From: a virus
Strand: one strand, 5' to 3'
DNA length: 64,000 bases
IMG/VR virus record: IMGVR_UViG_3300027899_001695
Span: 1 to 64,000 of that record
This document shows, one piece after another, positions 8,801 through 38,411 of the stretch (within the stretch, counting starts at the first letter, position 1; every line of letters begins with the position of its first letter). The position numbers and the translations under genes are program-made. The notes under the pieces were generated by a model. That model was not told the origin of the DNA, did not search any database, and saw only the letters and a list, made by a program, of their open reading frames with translations.

Positions 8801-9914
8801 AACTGATAATATAATGTATTATAGAAATAGTACGACATGGGTAGACATGAGTGGTGGAGGAGGAGTGGCCTATCTGCCATTGGCTGGTGGCACAATGACT
8901 TCTCCAGGAAACATTAATATGTTTGCTGGAAGCGTTATGCATGGATTAGGGGCTTTTACTCTTGATGCTATAACCACCCTTAATCTAGCCGCAGGTGCTT
9001 CACAAGTAATAACGATTGGAAATAGTTCTAATACTAATATTATTCAGCTACAAGGAAGTAGAACTCAAATTGTGGGGCCATTTAGATTAAGTCCTTATAC
9101 TGGGAGAGACCCCACACCTGGAGCAGGCTCTTTACATTATAGAACTGATTTAACTAATGGCGTAGGTAACGGTATTATACGATACTATGATAGTAGTGGT
9201 AATTGGATAACTCTTGCAGCTACGGGTTCTAGTAGTATATCTAATCATTCTTTGGATAGTGCTTATCACACTACTCCTGCAGGAGTCACAAGAACAGATT
9301 TATTAGCTACTTCAGCTAGATTTGGCCTTTTACGAAATTTAAATATGGATACTACTACTTATTTAGATGGGAGTGGGTTATTTAGTCAACCTACGCACTT
9401 TTTAGACTCTATTGGTTATCATACTGCTTTACGAAATAATACTGTTTTTAATGTTTCTACTACAGCTCATGGTTTTTGTCCTGCTTTACCAAATCCTGTA
9501 GATACTACAAAGTTCTTATCTGGGGCAGGAACGTGGTTAGTTCCTCCTGGAACTGGTGGAGGTGGAGGGAGCATTAGTGTAACTCAGCTTTTCTATAATT
9601 ACACAGGAGACCCTTATTATGGAACAGGAGGTAGAACGGCATCTACTACATATACTAATGGAACTAAAATACGTATGGTAACAGTTGCAGGATACACTTC
9701 TGGAGGTTCTTACACGACTTTTATGAGGGTTAAAACAGGAGCATCAACTGCAAATCAGATAGTGGCAGTTGCTGGGAATGACCCAGGTATAGGAGCTCCT
9801 GAAAATATTGAAACCATTACTTTTTTAGTTCCCCCTAATTATAAATATATGGTAGAGTTTGGATATGGGTATACTTCTTATATTTTAACTTGGGCCGAAT
9901 GGGATTTAGGATAA
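5826..9914 (+). CDS. Tail hub/central fibre (Tal-like N-terminus fused to fibre/receptor-binding region)
   Basis: IFVGRIN, LRAGDLVR..VIDIEY hub motifs; SANFVHGTSGWQINYDGVAEF; long G/S/T-rich fibre with internal duplication. Confidence 0.75.
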   Translation: MAIGTQLYYSSTNDPATETWLPVGGEPAKIKIKIVDSAIGVPRTMEAYLINTMVGGVHEKEGIYTAYRRVKVVEYGTTKTIFVGRINTSQPTQDDSYGQILIITATDYLQAFLDRKINTDYNSDTANLTGYTRSQIIGYIINGKNADGVVYPSYNVPTNYITTNITASPSTEKIKRQYASSNKTVARAIEELAQEEPWSDRTWSKVWINGTSRTDINTNAYSFLTAGSQYAYWGQTAPFVGVNVTNVSVVGSYGSFTWQYYASDLTWKSLTILQTTTFGTISMERWEVPSDWTQVSVLGTTAYYVRCLASSVSSVSTLKAECAVGVGFNYYVDENGVFQYFRKGSRPVGGPVAAGLTFSLSPNPSLPLTQRQIMANYEFTNQPKEIVTRVYVKGTAADTGNIVSASACNAALETQLNTIKEKWDFISGSGMTTAELTTYAQNRANSLLYSRSSTVERGAVSVVRYPYYTIGGVVTLLRAGDLVRAKCSMTGTDMDYEVIDIEYTEPNVSARINLISPSAGRGSEADDMSNIINRLKDGDDSVIPSARIGDLIAKHITAGDIDAGSITVDIDLASDGEGGGGTLQSANFVHGTSGWQINYDGVAEFQDIYLRGEIYSGKTLSVGGGSFTAGTVTLDSSGVKIKNTAADASTCSFYTYGNVLSGEIYAKFPATGMYLYSYGTIDLEAAKGDISIGTASGSVDFYAPYGDYHFHNDGFTSPPFLILPSAAATATKANGSLFFNSATDAFMGKTAAGWVTLGALSFPAHALDSASHTNSANLTSSLTATSARTGLMRALSNVSGEYFNGTGGWTVPTTVATHYLDDTSIHIGLSDTINLNTSSFTHGLCPKLDGNVAHFLSGMGTWLTPSVGHSPNADWGMASGAGAASGTLFLSGALVSDLTINNGLSIKSAGAFNVQGNGSITVRTTGVGGITYIGDSNITSSSVRIYGGLNADLLIQATGTGRIYMRAAQGMIMPTATTAPTTITTGAMYYNTTDNIMYYRNSTTWVDMSGGGGVAYLPLAGGTMTSPGNINMFAGSVMHGLGAFTLDAITTLNLAAGASQVITIGNSSNTNIIQLQGSRTQIVGPFRLSPYTGRDPTPGAGSLHYRTDLTNGVGNGIIRYYDSSGNWITLAATGSSSISNHSLDSAYHTTPAGVTRTDLLATSARFGLLRNLNMDTTTYLDGSGLFSQPTHFLDSIGYHTALRNNTVFNVSTTAHGFCPALPNPVDTTKFLSGAGTWLVPPGTGGGGGSISVTQLFYNYTGDPYYGTGGRTASTTYTNGTKIRMVTVAGYTSGGSYTTFMRVKTGASTANQIVAVAGNDPGIGAPENIETITFLVPPNYKYMVEFGYGYTSYILTWAEWDLG

Positions 9915-9937
9915 AATAAAAAAGCGGAGAAAATGAA

Positions 9938-11155
9938 ATGGCTTGGGGAACAACAATAAAAACAACAAAGGTACCAATTGCAATAAAGGATTTTAAACTT
10001 TATACAATGTCTGGAACTGCTCTATGGACAAAATTAAGTCTTGCAGGAATTGGGACACCGATGGGCATGCTTGATAATACATATTATTATACAGATGAAG
10101 CAGGTTGGAAGTTAATTCTAGGAGATTTAGTGCAGAACTCTTCTCTTTATGTTACCGATAGATATGACTGTCCACTTCCATATGATTTAGCTTTCTCTTT
10201 TGGGCTTTTTTATGCAGATGGAAGTAGTTCTATCAATGAGAAAAAAGGGTATTATAATTGGTATATCTGCAATTCCAATAAAGAGTTGTTGGAACGTTGT
10301 ATAGGGCCTTTGGAACGAGAGTGGGGGTTTAATTTTAAAATACATTCTTATGATTCTGAGAAAAAGGGTACACAAACGAATTTTGGGGAAAGAAATAAAG
10401 ATATCTATAGATTAATTACTAATATTGGTGCAGGAAATAAAAGAAAAAGCCCTAGAAAAGACTTTATTAAAGAATGGCACCAAATGTTTCATACGGAAGG
10501 GGGTAGGAAGAGAGTTCCTGGGTGTATCATGGAAAGCCCCTTGGAAACTAAGCAGGCTTTTATTGATGGGGTTATTGAAGGAGACGCTCATAAGAAAGGC
10601 CATATGTTGGGTGTTAAGAATAAATATACTTTAATGGAGCTTTATATCATTATGGATGAGCTTAGTCTTAATCCAAAAGCTTATCCAGAAAAACGAAGAG
10701 AAGATTTCTGGTATTTGCATTATTCTTTCTTAAATAAGCACGATTCTTATATTGCAAGATTCTTGGAAAATAAAGATTGGACTTCTGTTCAGGCAATAGC
10801 GAATGAATTTAAAATGTCTAATGGAATGGTTGGGGGCATTTTAGAAGGAATGGAAAAGAAAGGAAATATTATATTTCAAAAACCTTGGTCACAAAGAAAA
10901 GAAGTAAAACTAGTAAAAGGAATTGAAGCACATTGTGACAAGTTTGCAATGAAAGCGAGGGTTTTAGCATTTGAAAGGTATGGATTAAATTCTTGTGGTT
11001 TTGTAATTGGTGATGTACCACAAGGAAGACATAGTTTTAATTTAATTGTAACGACAACTGGTTTTCTTTTATTTGAACCGCAAAATACTGTTGCAAACTT
11101 TGGGGTTTTTCCTTTGGGTGGTAGAGATTATAAAACGGACATTGTCTTAATCTAA
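9938..11155 (+). CDS. Papain/transglutaminase-like cysteine peptidase (YDCDKFA...HSFN...FEPQ) interrupted in frame by a LAGLIDADG element; candidate lysin
   Basis: Removing aa 78-332 restores a 150-aa protein with Cys-His-Glu triad motifs; position after tail genes and before membrane proteins. Confidence 0.65.
   Translation: MAWGTTIKTTKVPIAIKDFKLYTMSGTALWTKLSLAGIGTPMGMLDNTYYYTDEAGWKLILGDLVQNSSLYVTDRYDCPLPYDLAFSFGLFYADGSSSINEKKGYYNWYICNSNKELLERCIGPLEREWGFNFKIHSYDSEKKGTQTNFGERNKDIYRLITNIGAGNKRKSPRKDFIKEWHQMFHTEGGRKRVPGCIMESPLETKQAFIDGVIEGDAHKKGHMLGVKNKYTLMELYIIMDELSLNPKAYPEKRREDFWYLHYSFLNKHDSYIARFLENKDWTSVQAIANEFKMSNGMVGGILEGMEKKGNIIFQKPWSQRKEVKLVKGIEAHCDKFAMKARVLAFERYGLNSCGFVIGDVPQGRHSFNLIVTTTGFLLFEPQNTVANFGVFPLGGRDYKTDIVLI
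10169..10933 (+). mobile_element. In-frame LAGLIDADG homing endonuclease + winged HTH insertion lacking a Hint domain
   Basis: LAFSFGLFYADG and AFIDGVIEGDA motifs; C-terminal wHTH (SVQAIANEF...LEGMEKKGNI); starts Cys, ends His, followed by Cys. Confidence 0.7.
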
Positions 11156-11213
11156 TTTTAAAACACAGACCTTATAGGTTATAATTAGAATAGTAATTAA
11201 GGAGGTAGATTTT

Positions 11214-11306
11214 ATGCTTTGGACTATTACATGGTATGCGTTTTGGGTAATTGTTATCGGTTCAATTGGAACAATTATCTGGACCCTGATTAAAAACAAG
11301 AAATAA
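11214..11306 (+). CDS. 30-aa single-TM peptide (holin/antiholin-like)
   Basis: MLWTITWYAFWVIVIGSIGTIIWTLIKNKK with AAGGAGGT RBS; not in ORF track. Confidence 0.6.
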   Translation: MLWTITWYAFWVIVIGSIGTIIWTLIKNKK

Positions 11307-11318
11307 AGGAGGATAGAA

Positions 11319-12104
11319 ATGGCAATTAATATAACACCTGAAGAGAGGAATTTCCGATTTAAAGTAACCCAGTTAGGACGTTACCTATTGGCTTTCTTTG
11401 TTGTCGGATTGGCCTTTACTTTAATCTTTTTCTCACCCACTAAAGACCCAGCACCTTATATAGGTCTTGCTGGTACTTTGATTGGGGCTATTGTTATGTT
11501 CTACTTTAGGTCGTCTTCTTCAAATGAAAAGATGCCTGTTGATTCAACTAGCAATAATGAAGATGTCGTAGTTCCTGCGATGCTTCCGTTTGTAGGCAAT
11601 TCACCTGCTGCAAATACCCCAAGAATGTGTTCAACTGGAGAATTACACGCTCCGAATTGTGGATGTGGAGATTGTGAGCCTTATTCAGCTCCTATTGAGT
11701 ATGAAGAGGTTAAGAATTATTCCGCACCTTCTGTAAGTTTTGACTTTAATGCTGTATTAGCTAGACTTGAGAAAGAAGCTAAAGCAGACGGTATAAAGTG
11801 GACAAAGATGAAGGCCGCAATGGAGTTTAAAGTCTGGTTATTCAATAATATCACAATCGGTTCTGACCGTTGGGCAGAAGGTATGGATGTTGCTTTAGAC
11901 TTAGCTAGTAAGGCCTATGCTGATGTAATTGGTATAGCTGCTCCTATTGCTTATTCTGAGGTTGCTAACTATAATGCTCACATGAACAAACTGAAGAAAG
12001 ATGTTAAGAATAAGTACGGTTGTGGCAAAGTTCCTGCAGAAGCAGTAAGAGTTGCTGTAATGACACTAAGGGAAGTTTTAAAATATCATGAAGAGATTAG
12101 CTAA
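11319..12104 (+). CDS. Two-TM membrane protein, holin-like N-terminus plus soluble domain
   Basis: Two hydrophobic helices ending IVMFYFRSSS; AAGGAGG RBS. Confidence 0.5.
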   Translation: MAINITPEERNFRFKVTQLGRYLLAFFVVGLAFTLIFFSPTKDPAPYIGLAGTLIGAIVMFYFRSSSSNEKMPVDSTSNNEDVVVPAMLPFVGNSPAANTPRMCSTGELHAPNCGCGDCEPYSAPIEYEEVKNYSAPSVSFDFNAVLARLEKEAKADGIKWTKMKAAMEFKVWLFNNITIGSDRWAEGMDVALDLASKAYADVIGIAAPIAYSEVANYNAHMNKLKKDVKNKYGCGKVPAEAVRVAVMTLREVLKYHEEIS

Positions 12105-12450
12105 ACCTTTAGTACTAATAGCGATTTTTCTTCTTTTTCTTTCTTCCGCCTTTTTAGGCTGTAACAGAAATTATGAAGAGTTTGCTATTACCGAAGTAAA
12201 GTATGAGGTACAATGTGGCTACGTGTTTCTTTGTTGGTACACTACAGAGCCCGCAATAAGTACTGTGTATACTTGTACTTTACCACCGAATGGGACTTGT
12301 TCAATCATTGCAATAGAACCTGAGATGGGGACTTTACATCAGATAAGTGTTTGTACAGATGAAACTGTGGAAAAATACCAAATTAGGACGGTAAATGCTA
12401 CTGGTGAGGAAGATTGGCAAGAATTTGCCAACCCCTACTTGACAAAGTAA
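12088..12450 (+). CDS. Lipoprotein with Fn3-like domain
   Basis: Signal peptide with FLGC lipobox; WYTTEPAISTVY...LHQISV Fn3-like pattern. Confidence 0.55.
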   Translation: MKRLAKPLVLIAIFLLFLSSAFLGCNRNYEEFAITEVKYEVQCGYVFLCWYTTEPAISTVYTCTLPPNGTCSIIAIEPEMGTLHQISVCTDETVEKYQIRTVNATGEEDWQEFANPYLTK

Positions 12451-31638: not shown

Positions 31639-34600
31639 ATGTCTGAAGAATTAATTGATTTTAATCAAGCCTTTGAAGAGTTAGCCAATTCTATCTCAAC
31701 CTCTAAATCTGCCATTGAGATTACTACTTTTGAGGATTTTATTATCAAGGTGTTTTCATTAAGTTACCCTGAGTATAATTTTGATACTTGGCATGTGCAT
31801 TCTATTGGGAATTTCTTAGATAGAGTACTAGCTTCTGAAAATAAGATGTCCGTCTCAGTATTACCTAGATACCATCTTAAAAGTACCCTTTTAGGCTACG
31901 CTTTTTCTATTTACCGTATGCTAACTGCTTTTGGTGATGGTTTGTATATATCTTATAAAGATGAGCTTGCTAATTTCCATTTAAGCAATATTAAAAATGC
32001 TATTAGTCGTAATCCAATTCTTAATCCAATTATGAAAGACCTTAGGCCACAGTCTACAGCAGGAATAGAGTATAAGATAGGGAATAAGCGGGTTAGGATG
32101 TTTTCCTCTGGTATCTTTGCTATGAAACGTGGTTTGCATACAGATTTGTGTCTTGTTCCTGATACAAAGATTAGATGTCATAATGGTTATAGAAATATAT
32201 CAGATATTAATGTTGGAGAGTCTGTATGGACACATACTGCGAAGTGTAAGAAGGTCTCTAAAGTTATGAAAAGAGCAATTAAAGACAGTTTGGTTGTGCT
32301 TTTCTTGAGTAATGGAGAAATAATTAAAGTAACTTCAAACCATCCTATTTTAACTACTAAAGGATGGAAGGAAGCTGGAAACTTAGAATTAACAGATGTC
32401 TTATTTAAACTTGAGTATGATAGTAAATTAAAAGGTAGAACTTATGAAGATATTCATGGTATTGAGAAAGCTAAGATACTAAGACATAAATTTACAACTA
32501 TTGATAGAAGCACTCAGTATAAACCAGTTAAAGGTAAAACATTAGAAGAATATTATGGTGTAGAAAAAGCGGAAGAAATGAAAAAAGCTGTAAGTAATGC
32601 CAATAAAGGAGTGGTTAGATTAGAATGTAGAAAACGAAAGACCGTTACATGTGCATGTGGAAAAGAATTTGAAGTTGTAGCAAGTTCTAAAAGAAAGTAC
32701 CATGCTTTAAAGTGTTACCATAAATATTCTAACTGTGGAAATAACTTTAGGGCTAAGGTTGGTAGTTTCAAATTGCAAAATAACCCTAATTGGAAAAATG
32801 GAGCTTCTTTTGAGCCTTATCCAATTGAGTTTAACTCTAATTTAAAGAAAATGGTTTTAGAACGAGATGGGTATAAATGTGCTGTATGTAGTGGAAATAA
32901 GGTATTACAAATTCATCATATAGACTATGATAAAAATAATTGTTGTGATGAGAATCTAATTACTTTATGTAAATCTTGTCACTCTAAAACTAATAATAGT
33001 AGACTCGAATGGATGGAGTATTTTATTAATGGGGTAATTTCTAATTATATTACTCTTCATAATGGTACTCATATTTTAAAAATTGAACAGGAGCCCTATG
33101 ATGGTTTTGTATATAATTTAGAGGTAGAAGAAGACCATACTTATGTTGGAAAAGGTATTATCTATCATAATTGCACAATTGTTGACGATGTGCTTGGTAC
33201 GGTTGAAAATCCGTTGTCTATGCTGGAACTGGACAAAGCGAAACTTATGTTTAATACAGAGGTACAGAATATTCCTAATAGGGACTGTCCTCTTATTGTA
33301 TTTGGTACTGTTATGTCATATTCAGACTTGTTATTTGATTTGAAAGATAATGCGGAGTTTATGAGTCTTTGGTACCCTGCATTGAATCCAGATAAAGACC
33401 ATGATGTATTATGGGAAGATAAATATCCTAAAGAATGGCTAGAAAAGAAAAAGAGGCAGTCTGGTTGGAAGTCTTTCTCTACTGAGTTCTTACTGATGCC
33501 TGTTATGGCTACAGAGGCTTTCTTTACAAGAGAAGAATTAGACAACAATGCTATAGATTCTACTCTTAAGAACCATTCTATTTACCGCATTTTTAATAAA
33601 GAATGGCATCATGTAGTGGCAGGATTGGATATTGGTAAAAGACGGAACCCTTCTCATCTCGCTATTTTTGTAGACAATGATGAAGGGGTGCTTACGCAAT
33701 TACACCAAGAGTTTTGGGATGGGATGGAGTATACAGAGCAGATTGAGAAAATTAAGGCTGCTGTAGAGAATTTTAAGATAGATAAGTTGTATATTGATGC
33801 TACTCGTGGTGAAATGGAAGAAAGAGGGCTACCTCGTGAGTGTATGATGGTTAAGTTTACTGGTAGAGGTTTTAGAAGCCAGTCTTCGTATGCTACTGAT
33901 TTTGCAAAGTATGTAGAGAACAAAAAGATTAAACTGTTAGATGATACTCGTTTTATAAACCAAATCACGTGTGTAACGAATGATTTGAAAGCTCCAGAGT
34001 CTCCATTAGGGCATGGTGATTGTTATGACCAAGATACTGAAATACTAACAAACAAAGGTTGGAAATTGTTCGCAGACTTAGATAAAACAGAAAAAGTAGC
34101 TACTCTTAATAGTGAGGGGTTTTTAGAATGGCAACAACCTACAGATTATATTGTAAAACATCGTAGTGGGCCAATGTATCAAGTAAAATCAACCCAAGTG
34201 GATTTAATTGTTACTCCTCTACATAAAATGTTTGTAAATGGTACATTAAAACAACCAGAAGAGATATTTAATAAACAAGTTCATTATAAAAAAGATGCCA
34301 AATGGAATGGAGAAGAAGTAGAGTTTATTACTATATTGGATAAACAGATAAAGATGGATGACTGGCTTGAATTTATGGGTTATTATATTAGTGAAGGGCA
34401 TACGACTAAAAGAAAAGGCGATGGCAAGAAGAGCCAATCTTGTATTTCGCAAGGAGAGCAAAAGAGAGACAGAATTAGAGAGTGTTTAAATAGGCTTCCA
34501 TTTAAATATACTGAGAATAAAAGTGGGTTTTGGCTATATAATTCAGACTTGGGAGCTTTATTATTACCATTAGGAAAAAGTTTTGATAAATACATACCTA

Positions 34601-35241
34601 CAGAACTCTTGAACTTATCAACACGCCAATTAAACATTCTTTATGAAGCTTTAATGTATGGGGATGGTACTTTTAATAAAACTTTTAGACAATATTATAC
34701 CTCTTCTATAAGACTCGCAAACCAGTTTCAAGAGTTATTATTAAAAATTGGAAAAAGTGGGAATATATATATTCGTGATTTTATAGGTAGGCAAGCACCA
34801 CATGGTATAACTAGAGGTGTGTGCTATGCTATAGGGATAATTGAGAAAAAGAATAACCCTATGGTAAATAAAGACAAAAAGCGTGGAAAGATTGCGGATA
34901 GTTGGATAAAATATACTGGATGGATTTACTGTGTTACAGTACCTAATCATATAGTGTATGTCAGGCGAAATGGAAAACCCTGCTGGTCTGGGAATAGCTT
35001 TTGGAGCGTTGCTTTGTCTGTAGGAGCCTATCAAGATTACTTTGCTCCAGATAGGGTTAAGGGGTTTAGTTATTTAGGAGATGCTCAGGAAACATTAGAA
35101 ATTAAAAAAGGCGTAGCTTTATCGAAAGATAGAAATGATATATGTAAAATGTGTAATAAACGAACTGTTAGAGTGCTTGAAAATGGTTCATTGCATTGTG
35201 ATAGTTGTTTTACAACATATGCTTTAATGGCAACAAAATAG
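31639..35241 (+). CDS. terL: Terminase large subunit with two inteins (mature ~534 aa)
   Basis: LPRYHLKST Walker A, RGLH..IVDD Walker B, FGT, GLDIG nuclease, IDATR, HGD. Confidence 0.9.
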   Translation: MSEELIDFNQAFEELANSISTSKSAIEITTFEDFIIKVFSLSYPEYNFDTWHVHSIGNFLDRVLASENKMSVSVLPRYHLKSTLLGYAFSIYRMLTAFGDGLYISYKDELANFHLSNIKNAISRNPILNPIMKDLRPQSTAGIEYKIGNKRVRMFSSGIFAMKRGLHTDLCLVPDTKIRCHNGYRNISDINVGESVWTHTAKCKKVSKVMKRAIKDSLVVLFLSNGEIIKVTSNHPILTTKGWKEAGNLELTDVLFKLEYDSKLKGRTYEDIHGIEKAKILRHKFTTIDRSTQYKPVKGKTLEEYYGVEKAEEMKKAVSNANKGVVRLECRKRKTVTCACGKEFEVVASSKRKYHALKCYHKYSNCGNNFRAKVGSFKLQNNPNWKNGASFEPYPIEFNSNLKKMVLERDGYKCAVCSGNKVLQIHHIDYDKNNCCDENLITLCKSCHSKTNNSRLEWMEYFINGVISNYITLHNGTHILKIEQEPYDGFVYNLEVEEDHTYVGKGIIYHNCTIVDDVLGTVENPLSMLELDKAKLMFNTEVQNIPNRDCPLIVFGTVMSYSDLLFDLKDNAEFMSLWYPALNPDKDHDVLWEDKYPKEWLEKKKRQSGWKSFSTEFLLMPVMATEAFFTREELDNNAIDSTLKNHSIYRIFNKEWHHVVAGLDIGKRRNPSHLAIFVDNDEGVLTQLHQEFWDGMEYTEQIEKIKAAVENFKIDKLYIDATRGEMEERGLPRECMMVKFTGRGFRSQSSYATDFAKYVENKKIKLLDDTRFINQITCVTNDLKAPESPLGHGDCYDQDTEILTNKGWKLFADLDKTEKVATLNSEGFLEWQQPTDYIVKHRSGPMYQVKSTQVDLIVTPLHKMFVNGTLKQPEEIFNKQVHYKKDAKWNGEEVEFITILDKQIKMDDWLEFMGYYISEGHTTKRKGDGKKSQSCISQGEQKRDRIRECLNRLPFKYTENKSGFWLYNSDLGALLLPLGKSFDKYIPTELLNLSTRQLNILYEALMYGDGTFNKTFRQYYTSSIRLANQFQELLLKIGKSGNIYIRDFIGRQAPHGITRGVCYAIGIIEKKNNPMVNKDKKRGKIADSWIKYTGWIYCVTVPNHIVYVRRNGKPCWSGNSFWSVALSVGAYQDYFAPDRVKGFSYLGDAQETLEIKKGVALSKDRNDICKMCNKRTVRVLENGSLHCDSCFTTYALMATK
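32149..33171 (+). mobile_element. Intein 1 of TerL (341 aa, HNH endonuclease)
   Basis: CLVPDTKI...TSNHP...VYNLEV...IIYHN|C; HHIDYDKNN..NLITLCKSCH. Confidence 0.9.
34021..34995 (+). mobile_element. Intein 2 of TerL (325 aa, LAGLIDADG)
   Basis: CYDQDTEILT...VTPLH...FMGYYISEG...LMYGDG...YCVTVPNH...WSGN|S. Confidence 0.9.
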
Positions 35242-35633: not shown

Positions 35634-38411
35634 ATGAAATTAAATGAATTCTTGCCTGATTTAGCTGCTCAAAATCAAAGTCTCGTTAAGATGAATACCG
35701 CTATCCAGAATGTATATGATGGTGGTTTTGCGTCTTTTGCTAAAGGACGGATGGGTGGAGGAGTACAGACTTCTTCTCCTTCTCCATTAGGTATTGAACA
35801 GCTTTATTTTGATTGGTTGCGTACTGCCTATGCTTATAGACGACAGTTTATTCAGGATTTATACTTACTAGCATATGATGTTACAGAAATACGTACTCCT
35901 TTATTGCATTTACGTGGTGAAATCTTCAGGAAAGGTTTAGATGCGTGGATTCCTAAATTTGCGGTAAAATGTGAAAGATGTGGGGAAGAGTATGATGAAG
36001 TAAAGAAGAAGTGTGCTAGATGTGGTAATAAAGAGATGAAGAAACCTGACCATAAGCAAGTAGAGTATTTTGATGAAATGCGAAAGTCTTGTAATATCTT
36101 TGGTCAAAGTTTTGAAGAAATTCTTCAAACTTGTGAAGATGATATGAATATTGTTGATGATTGTTTTGTGCATTTGCAAAAACAATACTTATTGGCAAAA
36201 GATACGCTTTGGAGTAGGGTATTGGAGTTAAGGCGTATTCATCCTGCTTTAATGGAATATGATTTAGATAAAGCAGGACTTCCTCGTAATTCGCATTGGT
36301 TATGCCCATTTCATCGTGAAGATGTTGAAATAGCTCCTGGTCCTTGCAAAGAGTGTGGTTTTGAGATGCTTCCTGTCATGTATATTTATAACCATCGTGG
36401 AAAGAGAGTATACTTACTTGAAGAAGAGATTATTCACATGTCTAAGTTCTCTCCTTCGGAAACCTACGGTTACTCTCCTTTACTTACAATCATGCAGAAG
36501 GTTTTAACTATCTCTGGTATGGATAGGTTCTTATATCGTTATTTCTTTGAGAGAAAGGCTCCTACAGGGATGATATTGACCTATACAGATGACCCACAAT
36601 CATTAGAGGTGGAAAGAGCCAGAATTGAGGCTAAGATGATGGAAGACCCAACATACATGCCTTGGGTAGCGGTATCTCAGAAAACAGGACGTGGAAGAAC
36701 TGACTTTGTTAGATTATTTCATACTCTGCAAGAAATGGACTACATGAATGTGCGTAATGAGATTAGGGATAGAATCGCTTCTATGTATGGTGTACCACAA
36801 GTCTATCTTAATATCTTTGAAGGTGTCGGAGCCATGTCTGGTCAGTCTGTTTCTGGTGATACACCATTATGGATACGCAAAGATGAAAAGTTTATTGACT
36901 TGATTCCTATTGAGTCGTTGCATCATAATTCTGCTAACCAACATGACCAGTTCCCCAAGAATTTGGAAGTGCTTTCTCAGGATGGCTGGACTAAGCCTAA
37001 ACATATTTGGAGGCATAAATGCAGGGAAGAGAACACCCTTGCGTTTGAATTTGGTGGAGGTTTTGCTGAGACTACAGTAGACCATTCTCTTATGAAAGAC
37101 AAACAGGAAGTAAAGGCTTCTGATTTGAAGGTAGGCGACAGTATTGATACTGTTGAATACCCTAAATCTGAAGAATATGACTCAATGACTGAAGATTTTG
37201 CTTGGTTGTTAGGTTTTTATTCTGCGGAAGGTTCTATTCTCTTTGAAGAAGCGGGTTTAGACCTATCAAACAACAAAGTAGAGCTCTTAGAAAAGTGCCA
37301 GAGAATATTGGAAGCTAGGTATAATAAAAAGGCTAAAATAGCTTTCTATGAAGGTAATGATTGTGGTAGGGTGCTTATTTATGGTAATAGCATTGTAGAA
37401 GATTTTAAAGGTCTTGTATACTATGCCTATAATACTGTTAGTAGCAAAGACAGCAAGCCTATACGAGTACCTAAGTTAGTCCGAAAGGTTCCTACTCAAG
37501 TTATTAATGGTTCTTCTGCTATTAAGCAATCTTTCTTAAAGGGTTACATTGATGGAGATGGTAGTGTTACTAGTGATGATTCCTATAGATGTGTTTCTAC
37601 TTCATTGCTTCTATTAGCTGGTATTGAGTACTTAGTTAAGATTCTTGGTTACAATACTAACGTAGAGTTTAGAAAGAGCGATAATCAAAACTGGAACCAT
37701 AACTGGAGACTTACATTTGGTAAAGGTAATAGAAAGACAGAATCAAATGTAATCAAAAGAATTCTTTCTTTACCCGCAAATAAATATGTCTATGATATTG
37801 AAACTGAGAGCCATACGTTTGTTGGTGGTATCGGCTGTCTTGTTTTCCATAACAGTCAGCAGTTAAAGGTATTTAGTAACATTATTGACGCTGACCAGAG
37901 ACGCTACAATGAGAAGCTATTTCCACAGCTATTAAAAGCTTTCCATATAACGGATTGGAGTTTGAAGTTATTACCACCTGAAGAGAAAATAGATTCAATG
38001 GTGCTTCAACAGGCACAACAAAGGGTAGCAATAGCTACGCAGATGATGACATTGGGCTTTCAGGTTGAATTAAAACCTGGAACTAAGAATATTAAGGATT
38101 TGGACTTTATCTTTACAGGTAAAGTTGAAAATCCAATGCAGGCCATGATGGGAGGTGCTGGTGGTGCTGGTGGCATGCCCCCGCTACCTCCAGGTGGAGA
38201 AGGAAGCCAAGGTGGAGAAGGCGCAGAGGGTGGAGCATCAGGCATGACCACCGCACCACCTAGAGTTCCAGAAAAGGGTGTGGAAAAAGCAGAAGGAATA
38301 GAACACTATGCTTGGAATAAGCGAAATCCGAAGGAAGAGGCTGTTAGTAGAGATATTGAGGCCGAGAAGATATATCAAGGAAAGAACTTAGAGGAGCAGC
38401 TTGAACCATAA
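35634..38411 (+). CDS. Portal protein with zinc-finger insertions and one intein (mature ~589 aa)
   Basis: EEIIH...YGYSPLL, YF...AP.GM, EMDY...R.RIASMYGVP portal motifs. Confidence 0.85.
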   Translation: MKLNEFLPDLAAQNQSLVKMNTAIQNVYDGGFASFAKGRMGGGVQTSSPSPLGIEQLYFDWLRTAYAYRRQFIQDLYLLAYDVTEIRTPLLHLRGEIFRKGLDAWIPKFAVKCERCGEEYDEVKKKCARCGNKEMKKPDHKQVEYFDEMRKSCNIFGQSFEEILQTCEDDMNIVDDCFVHLQKQYLLAKDTLWSRVLELRRIHPALMEYDLDKAGLPRNSHWLCPFHREDVEIAPGPCKECGFEMLPVMYIYNHRGKRVYLLEEEIIHMSKFSPSETYGYSPLLTIMQKVLTISGMDRFLYRYFFERKAPTGMILTYTDDPQSLEVERARIEAKMMEDPTYMPWVAVSQKTGRGRTDFVRLFHTLQEMDYMNVRNEIRDRIASMYGVPQVYLNIFEGVGAMSGQSVSGDTPLWIRKDEKFIDLIPIESLHHNSANQHDQFPKNLEVLSQDGWTKPKHIWRHKCREENTLAFEFGGGFAETTVDHSLMKDKQEVKASDLKVGDSIDTVEYPKSEEYDSMTEDFAWLLGFYSAEGSILFEEAGLDLSNNKVELLEKCQRILEARYNKKAKIAFYEGNDCGRVLIYGNSIVEDFKGLVYYAYNTVSSKDSKPIRVPKLVRKVPTQVINGSSAIKQSFLKGYIDGDGSVTSDDSYRCVSTSLLLLAGIEYLVKILGYNTNVEFRKSDNQNWNHNWRLTFGKGNRKTESNVIKRILSLPANKYVYDIETESHTFVGGIGCLVFHNSQQLKVFSNIIDADQRRYNEKLFPQLLKAFHITDWSLKLLPPEEKIDSMVLQQAQQRVAIATQMMTLGFQVELKPGTKNIKDLDFIFTGKVENPMQAMMGGAGGAGGMPPLPPGGEGSQGGEGAEGGASGMTTAPPRVPEKGVEKAEGIEHYAWNKRNPKEEAVSRDIEAEKIYQGKNLEEQLEP
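36846..37853 (+). mobile_element. Portal intein (336 aa, LAGLIDADG, Ser1)
   Basis: Q|SVSGDTPL...TVDHSL...LLGFYSAEG...FLKGYIDGDG...VYDIET...VFHN|S. Confidence 0.9.

Follow-up and report, generated by a model that had tools for sequence, protein, structure and literature searches.

An in-frame, intein-derived LAGLIDADG insert without Hint domain at the putative catalytic cysteine of a phage papain-like peptidase

Homing endonucleases are thought to persist in essential or conserved genes only as part of a self-splicing intron or intein that removes them. In the present work, a phage gene was analysed that carries a LAGLIDADG endonuclease within its reading frame. The gene is located in a stretch of 64,000 nucleotides (nt) of the IMG/VR virus record IMGVR_UViG_3300027899_001695 (positions 1 to 64,000 of that record, hereafter called the window), which originates from a tailed phage of a freshwater metagenome, represents one part of the phage genome and has every gene on the + strand. 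The open reading frame (ORF) in question codes for a predicted papain-like peptidase of 150 amino acids (aa) that is interrupted by an insert of 255 aa. This insert is an in-frame, intein-derived element without the Hint domain, i.e. the splicing domain of inteins; elements of this kind have a single origin, are scattered over the tree of the host gene and are exactly present or absent at one site.

Architecture of the interrupted peptidase gene

The ORF comes directly after a 1362-aa tail-fibre gene and is preceded by the sequence GGAG at positions 9926-9929, 8 nt 5′ of its ATG. It reads ...YVTDRYD/CPLPYDLAFSFGLFYADG...KLVKGIEAH/CDKFAMK...HSFN...FEPQ, where slashes mark the two junctions between the insert and the flanking peptidase halves, which are here called N-extein and C-extein (Table 1). 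Alignment with about 20 uninterrupted homologues revealed one clean gap of 255 aa from D77 to C333. At the DNA level, positions 323-588 of the empty allele L009 were matched by BLASTN to window positions 9905-10171 (92.5% identity) and its positions 586-1573 to window positions 10934-11923 (81% identity). Both matches overlap in the TGT codon alone, so that the insert has a length of exactly 765 nt with an ambiguity of 3 nt. Junction-pairing or terminal repeats beyond this TGT were not found in a repeat search.

Table 1. Features of the interrupted peptidase gene and intein-containing genes of the window
Feature	Position	Strand	Remarks
Interrupted MOA/PSL-type papain-fold peptidase (predicted), whole gene	9938-11155	+	405 aa plus stop
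N-extein, aa 1-77, ending in invariant Asp77	9938-10168	+	
Hint-less insert of 255 aa, aa 78-332	10169-10933	+	765 nt
TGT codon of Cys1, a remnant of intein block A	10169-10171	+	
Two-motif LAGLIDADG endonuclease domain, aa 78-267	10169-10738	+	fold of intein endonuclease domains, I-DmoI
LAGLIDADG motif 1 (LAFSFGLFYADG), aa 84-95, acidic residue D94	10187-10222	+	
LAGLIDADG motif 2 (AFIDGVIEGDA), aa 207-217, acidic residue D216	10556-10588	+	
Winged helix-turn-helix, aa 268-331	10739-10930	+	some Hint-less lineages only
Cys+1, putative catalytic Cys333 of the peptidase, equivalent of MOA Cys215	10934-10936	+	
C-extein, aa 333-405, with His365 (11030-11032) and Glu380 (11075-11077)	10934-11152	+	
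Terminase large subunit with two canonical inteins	31639-35241		1200 aa
Portal protein, intein with two-motif LAGLIDADG domain	35634-38411		925 aa; Pfam Intein_splicing and LAGLIDADG_3

The host protein was characterized by comparison with the C-terminal protease/dimerisation domain of two mushroom lectins, MOA and PSL1a. A profile of the uninterrupted homologues matched PSL1a (3phz, E 0.002) and MOA (2iho, E 0.004), and the motifs fDC[DE]dFA, His and fEPq were paired in these alignments. In MOA, the residues Cys215, His257 and Glu274 are catalytic, Trp208 belongs to the oxyanion hole and the domain is an active protease as well as a dimerisation domain (PMC8244254). The residue paired with Trp208 in the phage protein is Y71. 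Among 79 sequences of empty, Hint-less and full-intein alleles D77, C333 and H365 are invariant and E380 is almost so. The Pfam families PF18021 and PF18022 matched the host protein under the cut-offs, i.e. without reaching Pfam's own membership threshold; the Agglutinin_C signal on the C-terminal part of the 405-aa ORF was weak and a search of PHROGs gave nothing significant. Two structure models were generated, the first one on the basis of 4 insert-bearing sequences with a predicted local distance difference test score (pLDDT) below 50 for the insert, which made it unusable for this part, and the second one with AlphaFold2 on the basis of the 79-sequence alignment (pLDDT 88.4, predicted template modelling score 0.74). 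The exteins fold jointly into the PSL1a/MOA protease domain in the second model (Z 11.3-11.9 over 116 residues, with the PSL1a-E64 complex among the matches), and those of the first model gave Z values of 11.1 and 10.2 to the same domain. Thus, a Cys-His-Glu triad in the order fDC..H..EPQ is found on a MOA/PSL-type fold. An earlier note, made from the sequence of the window alone, had placed the 255-aa insert at the catalytic Cys of a 150-aa papain-like peptidase, and this predicted location is supported by the alignments and the structure match. Fold and order of the motifs (fDC[DE]xFA...H...EPQ) are the same as in the papain-like protease domain of MOA and PSL1a (2iho, 3phz, 5mua), whereas the phage protein, as known here from sequence and model, is a stand-alone protein of 150 aa without lectin domain.

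Of intein block A, only Cys1 and about 4 residues are left in the insert, and the first LAGLIDADG motif begins 6 residues past Cys1. The insert lacks blocks B (TxxH), F and G as well as a terminal Asn and ends in His. Pfam LAGLIDADG_3 was found at aa 83-160; the insert scanned alone reached 22.7 bits against a cut-off of 22.5, which was the sole scan reaching it. Weak FeoC/MarR winged-helix signals were obtained at aa 273-322, and no Hint or intein Pfam family was found on the 405-aa ORF. In the AlphaFold2 model, residues 82-261 form two alpha-beta-beta-alpha-beta-beta-alpha halves and residues 269-325 a winged helix, and no strands are present from Cys1 to LAGLIDADG helix 1. Structure comparison with VIA-align matched residues 73-267 to the endonuclease domains only of the inteins TliVMA (7qsu, Z 16.5, chain residues 130-316), PI-TkoII, PhoVMA and PI-SceI (residues 187-390 only) and to the whole of I-DmoI (Z 13.4-13.8), while residues 267-331 matched MarR and Z-alpha winged helices (Z about 10). 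No match to a Hint domain was obtained in the comparison of this model. The insert has therefore the properties of a monomeric two-motif LAGLIDADG endonuclease, with two helices each ending in an acidic residue, two alpha-beta-beta-alpha-beta-beta-alpha halves and fold matches with Z values of 13-16.5. Due to the fact that no in-frame start codon is present between the junction and motif 1, the nuclease can be produced only as a fusion.

The hallmarks of class 1 inteins are thus present only at the junctions, i.e. Cys/Ser at position 1 and Cys/Ser/Thr at position +1 (Cys78 and Cys333), while the Hint fold with blocks A, B, F and G and the C-terminal Asn, Gln or Asp are absent. Sequence, profile alignment and model agree with the earlier note in that there is no room for blocks A and B and no block F; the C-terminal winged helix-turn-helix read from the sequence was recovered by the Pfam signals and the structure match, and the absence of a detectable Hint fold was reproduced by Pfam and structure comparison.

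Allelic series at one insertion site

In order to define the distribution of the element, the 255-aa insert was searched against 1.8 billion cluster representatives, and the resulting 149 matches were rescanned with a hidden Markov model of the empty alleles; shorter proteins were searched additionally. Four kinds of alleles were found in one gene family. The uninterrupted homologues asked for in the earlier note were obtained in the search of shorter proteins as about 20 empty alleles of 142-153 aa that read ...RYD-CDKFAMK... without a break. Their identity reached up to 91% over the best local BLASTP segment, P0005 having 86-89% per extein, and L009 shows 92% protein identity to the window. 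Moreover, short contigs of two other lake metagenomes join the N-extein directly to ...NDIYD-CEDF... and thus represent the empty allele. Among species-representative genomes, the only match was an empty homologue with 45% identity (L054, CAZQDF010000097.1). Its 6-kb contig was assigned to a metagenome-assembled genome of an uncultured member of the Dehalococcoidales and may be a phage or prophage fragment. A tblastn search of GenBank phage records for a homologue gave no match.

At the same site, canonical inteins of 312-364 aa are found in about 30 clusters with a length of 460-625 aa, with the pattern FHD/CLLPDTPVIV...TxDHK...VYDINTxxHxFVA..LVHN/CDNFA. Of these same-site inteins, 19 of 19 start with Cys1 and end in Asn, the penultimate residue is His or Lys, and Pfam Intein_splicing was detected on 8 of the 19 proteins. 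The Hint-less alleles, i.e. other alleles with the same insert at the same junction, comprise about 40 diverged clusters with a length of 323-504 aa and inserts of 196-272 aa. The first LAGLIDADG glycine is found 11 residues past Cys1 in these inserts (C-x-V/I/L-P-x-D/E-L-A-...-GLFFADG), and they end in A, G, H, L, F, C, R or Q, with N in none of 41 cases. No Hint or intein family was among the best 25 of the 43 Pfam families on the 41 Hint-less proteins. Finally, in a close relative of P0025 (P0065, 292 aa) the insert is internally deleted to 144 aa with the frame kept. Motif 1 and the winged helix are retained in P0065, the remaining nuclease core is gone, and the allele resembles a stage of decay within the homing cycle.

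The relationship between the two forms of insert was resolved by profile-profile alignment. The hhalign alignment of Hint-less and full-intein alleles (E 4.5e-65) pairs the N-extein, the DC-x-P motif, the endonuclease domain and the C-extein, and leaves the intein Hint-N (about 115 columns, including TxDHK) and Hint-C (VYDINT...VHN) without counterpart in the Hint-less form. Because everything but Hint-N and Hint-C is matched, the sequence comparison identifies the window element as an intein minus Hint, its ancestor being a canonical intein of this very site. Not every Hint-less lineage has the winged helix, as seen from insert lengths of either 196-227 or 244-272 aa. Since both kinds interleave on the endonuclease tree, it was gained or lost several times among Hint-less inserts; the same-site inteins appear to be without it, as judged by insert length.

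In a tree built from 149 rows of the endonuclease domain, 40 Hint-less inserts, P0026 and the fragment P0087 were united in one clade (FastTree support 98), which is nested among the same-site inteins with the inteins of other proteins outside. The same Hint-less clade was obtained with IQ-TREE for 88 rows (support of 93 in the Shimodaira-Hasegawa-like approximate likelihood ratio test), and the IQ-TREE tree with all 41 together, including the stray P0053, was better than the free search (approximately unbiased (AU) test, p 0.70). In the tree of the exteins, from which the insert had been removed, full-intein and empty alleles are interspersed with the Hint-less ones, with 18 changes, at least 8 of which are required by well-supported branches. 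A constrained tree with a single Hint-less clade is worse by 573 log-likelihood units and is rejected (AU p 3e-8). The empty alleles in this tree were sampled around the subfamily of the query only. Because the Hint-less inserts form one clade on the endonuclease tree and are scattered on the host tree, the simplest reading of these trees would be that Hint was lost once and that the element then moved horizontally between alleles via homing and/or recombination; vertical descent mixed with many precise losses and replacements would be a less simple, albeit conceivable, alternative.

Traces of exchange were also found at the insertion site itself. P0009, an empty allele, has a mosaic structure with the breakpoint at this site, its N-extein being 91% identical to that of the window and its C-extein 89% identical to that of P0010 and 68% to that of the window. 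Such a mosaic would be the expected outcome of repairing cuts at the insertion site. Just past the site, P0009 and P0010 read CEDFAIKAK as compared to CDKFAMKAR, and on the basis of this difference alleles of their type may be cleavage-resistant variants. As a separate observation, loose ends of runs X3/X4 are located at window position 10151, runs X2-X4 covering short parts only. Regarding the flanks, no detectable similarity to the tail-fibre C-terminus was found between L009 positions 1-322 and window positions 9584-9904, and downstream of the peptidase gene L009 is about 81% identical to the window over 1 kb. This change from absent to high similarity points to a mosaic boundary where the fibre gene ends.

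The allelic series also bears on the possibility that the interrupted ORF is an assembly artefact or chimera. The same architecture was found in independent metagenomes (L007 and L008) and in many protein clusters of JGI, ENA and Logan. In an independent assembly of the probable source run by a second assembler, the occupied gene is spanned by a single 59-kb contig at depth 28. An artefact is therefore of negligible probability, and since the independent contig spans the occupied gene and empty alleles occur separately, misassembly as the origin of the interrupted ORF is excluded.

Selection on the element and its fate in the host protein

Selection was estimated from the ratio of non-synonymous to synonymous substitution rates (dN/dS), using the occupied allele L007, which is 84% identical to the protein of the window. 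Between these two occupied alleles dN/dS was 0.07 for the insert (dS about 1.0), 0.036 for the LAGLIDADG core (dS about 1.1), 0.31 for the N-extein and 0.21 for the C-extein (dS about 1.0) and 0.26 for both exteins (dS 1.03). For both exteins, values of 0.12 (dS 0.45) and 0.18 (dS 1.47) were obtained when the empty allele L009 was compared with the window and with L007, respectively. The insert is thus under strong purifying selection. The nuclease acids are conserved in the Hint-less clusters, D94 being D or E in 41 of 41 and D216 being D in 37 of 41, and so is the triad of the host, with C333 and H365 in all 41 clusters and E or D at the position of E380 in 40. Two residues past motif 1 (ADG-x-C; S97 in the window), Cys is found in 35 of 41 Hint-less inserts and in 6 of 19 same-site inteins, while the clade of the window has Ser. 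Low dN/dS, conserved acids, translation as a fusion only and the frame kept in P0065 suggest that nuclease and host protein are functional in occupied alleles and that the frame matters.

These data can be held against the explanation that the element is a decaying intein remnant in a non-working or dispensable gene, the occupied alleles looking intact merely through recent invasion. The element is indeed a deletion derivative of an intein, further internal decay is seen in P0065, dN/dS of the exteins is somewhat higher between occupied alleles (0.26) than between occupied and empty ones (0.12-0.18), and the C-exteins have diverged in a few Hint-less alleles (P0046, P0050). However, at a dS of about 1 the exteins of occupied alleles are still kept at 0.21-0.31 and the insert at 0.07. 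Moreover, Cys and His are invariant and Glu is nearly so across 41 clusters that are 23-36% identical, which is as good as in the splicing full-intein alleles, and the reading frame is held in all of them, even after internal deletion. Decay in a dispensable gene is accordingly judged improbable. The two options put forward in the earlier note, a new in-frame homing class and a decayed intein, are thereby each right in part: descent from an intein was established, yet the element is no decaying singleton and belongs to a sizeable, conserved lineage whose members have spread from allele to allele. The same applies to full inteins as closest homologues with this copy as singleton, because full-intein homologues exist and the Hint-less form counts about 40 clusters.

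Removal of the 765 nt at the RNA level, by a group I or group II intron or other processing, or their bypass by ribosome skipping, is suggested by the frequent location of LAGLIDADG genes in group I introns, but is very unlikely. A search of positions 9500-11600 returned no Rfam intron or other meaningful family at E values up to 10, hence no structured catalytic RNA core was found. The RNA of positions 10120-10980 is no more stable than shuffled sequence (z 0.3), and none of the offsets allowed by the TGT ambiguity provides both the U that usually precedes the 5′ splice site and a terminal G of the intron. Among the sequencing runs listed as containing this DNA there was no RNA run. Codon-level purifying selection extends through the whole insert to both junctions, the frame with the downstream exon is kept in about 40 diverged clusters of different lengths, and the relatives of the insert are inteins. 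The Rfam result and the codon-level constraint are also in agreement with the earlier reading of the insert as coding throughout without a group I core.

Canonical protein splicing of the window insert would be impossible due to the missing Hint fold. Post-translational removal or detachment by unconventional chemistry is conceivable, albeit unlikely. By one route, the papain-type Cys333/His365 would replace Hint and attack the Asp77-Cys78 bond, which would lead to splicing or N-terminal cleavage; by another, the peptidase would cut both junctions, perhaps in trans within a dimer, yielding a two-chain enzyme and free endonuclease. Such a removal would be in line with the conservation of Cys1, which 40 of 41 Hint-less clusters retain although the adjoining residues and the last residue vary freely. 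The same holds for Cys+1, which is the nucleophile of the active-site thiolate pair and adjoins both junctions, and for the dimerising, active protease domain of MOA (PMC8244254); in addition, a permanent 255-aa domain in the heart of the active site might interfere. On the other hand, the insert has no terminal Asn, and because its last residue is not conserved, being A, G, H, L, F, C, R or Q, there is no known route to break the bond between the insert and Cys333 and no conserved cleavage motif at the C-terminal junction. In the exceptional P0026, Cys1 is replaced by Asp and the insert and the host Cys, His and Glu are nevertheless retained. To our knowledge, there is no precedent for removal by the chemistry of a host protease. 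The specific proposal that Cys1 beside the papain-type Cys/His lets the peptidase fold stand in for Hint, so that the insert would be excised or detached in a protease-assisted manner, is rated as slightly less likely still. If true, protease-assisted excision would be a second, independent way of protein splicing or programmed self-cleavage.

Taken together, sequence data and model make it probable that the insert is an intein-derived, splicing-free and still-mobile homing element that is tolerated as a domain insertion. It goes back to a canonical class 1 intein located at this position in the peptidase gene family, from which both Hint halves have been deleted, leaving Cys1, about four residues of block A, the two-motif LAGLIDADG endonuclease and a variable linker, with a winged helix added in some lineages. 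The insert would not be spliced out and would remain as an extra domain between Asp77 and Cys333. Because the endonuclease domain formerly sat in a loop of Hint, its N- and C-terminal ends are presumably close together, so that both peptidase halves could still fold into one papain-like domain. The fusion protein would cut empty alleles at ...GAC/TGT GAC..., and repair would copy the element in. In PI-SceI-type inteins DNA contacts are provided by the splicing domain, and the winged helix may compensate for the contacts once made by Hint. In agreement with a splicing-free homing-endonuclease insertion, the nuclease is in frame, is distributed sporadically and shows signatures neither of inteins nor of introns.

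Several points weigh against this tolerated-insertion proposal. The insertion between the invariant Asp and the catalytic Cys is at the centre of the active site and not in a permissive loop; the site is 6 residues past the equivalent of the oxyanion-hole Trp of MOA, and the N-terminal linker has only about 5 residues. Owing to this central position and the short linker, an unimpaired peptidase activity of the fusion is not obvious. Furthermore, Cys1 would have no role in a pure tolerated insertion and is retained in 40 of 41 clusters, the sampling of empty alleles covers the query's own subfamily, and the incongruence between exteins and insert could partly result from recombination between occupied alleles instead of homing into empty ones.

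Comparison with known systems and implications

The window also codes for a family A DNA polymerase, a ribonucleotide reductase and a DnaB-like helicase, and it contains canonical inteins elsewhere. Of four such inteins claimed in the earlier note three were confirmed, two in the terminase large subunit and one in the portal protein. The first terminase intein extends from about aa 171 to 511 and shows Intein_splicing and Hint, and the second one reaches from HGD/CYDQDTEIL to ...CWSGN/SFWS and has its own LAGLIDADG domain. Downstream of the peptidase gene, two ORFs of 261 and 120 aa (window positions 11319-12450) have hydrophobic N-terminal segments and no Pfam match; they could be candidate lysis or membrane partners of the peptidase.

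Class 1 inteins with LAGLIDADG domains (PI-SceI; TliVMA, 7qsu; PI-TkoII, 2cw7) and the full inteins of the same site (P0096, P0072) share with the window insert a homologous endonuclease, the in-frame place before a catalytic Cys as +1 residue, Cys1 with C-x-hydrophobic-P and a sporadic presence among alleles. In contrast to these inteins, the window insert lacks the rest of block A, blocks B, F and G, the terminal Asn and the Hint fold. Monomeric endonucleases of the I-DmoI type have the same fold, two motifs and conserved acidic residues; they are free-standing or intron-encoded, whereas the window nuclease is fused at both ends and lacks start and stop codons of its own.

The closest described cases come from actinobacteriophages. 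In DNA methylases of these phages, a "seemingly lone LAGLIDADG" insertion was described as vertically inherited, with no intein ancestor named (Arsenault, Gosselin and Gogarten 2025, PMC11855218), and the ShiLan domain is an in-frame insertion in an actinobacteriophage methylase that hides an out-of-frame HNH (PMC11855218). Common to these and to the present element are nuclease sequence within a phage enzyme, no detectable intein or intron and a presumed tolerated domain or loop. However, the HNH of ShiLan is out of frame and the LAGLIDADG domain here is in frame, and unlike the lone LAGLIDADG of the methylases the present element is accompanied by intein ancestors, empty alleles, a decayed form and about 40 mobile descendants at one catalytic-nucleophile site. 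In the 2025 survey of actinobacteriophage inteins, non-canonical endonuclease arrangements were reported, all still with a splicing domain. The HO endonuclease of yeast is an intein-derived, non-splicing LAGLIDADG protein (PMC7282813). HO and the window insert would both be intein descendants that no longer splice, HO keeping its nuclease function and the window insert, as far as the sequence tells, its nuclease acids. HO is a free-standing domesticated gene retaining Hint-like sequence, whereas in the window element Hint is gone and the element is still inside the host protein.

New findings are the intein ancestors of this site, a Hint-less lineage that is large and mobile, its position at the catalytic nucleophile and the retained Cys1. 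At one site of one gene family, empty, full-intein, Hint-less and internally deleted alleles form a whole series, which offers a concrete evolutionary route from inteins to splicing-free in-frame nuclease insertions in phage genes. For domain-insertion engineering, the site and its linkers could serve as a guide, and many new LAGLIDADG specificities are available from the family. The finding raises the question of how an active site tolerates or processes a 255-aa domain directly before its nucleophile, for which the near-universal Cys1 is an unexplained clue, and it implies that selfish nucleases may live inside an enzyme active site without being spliced out.

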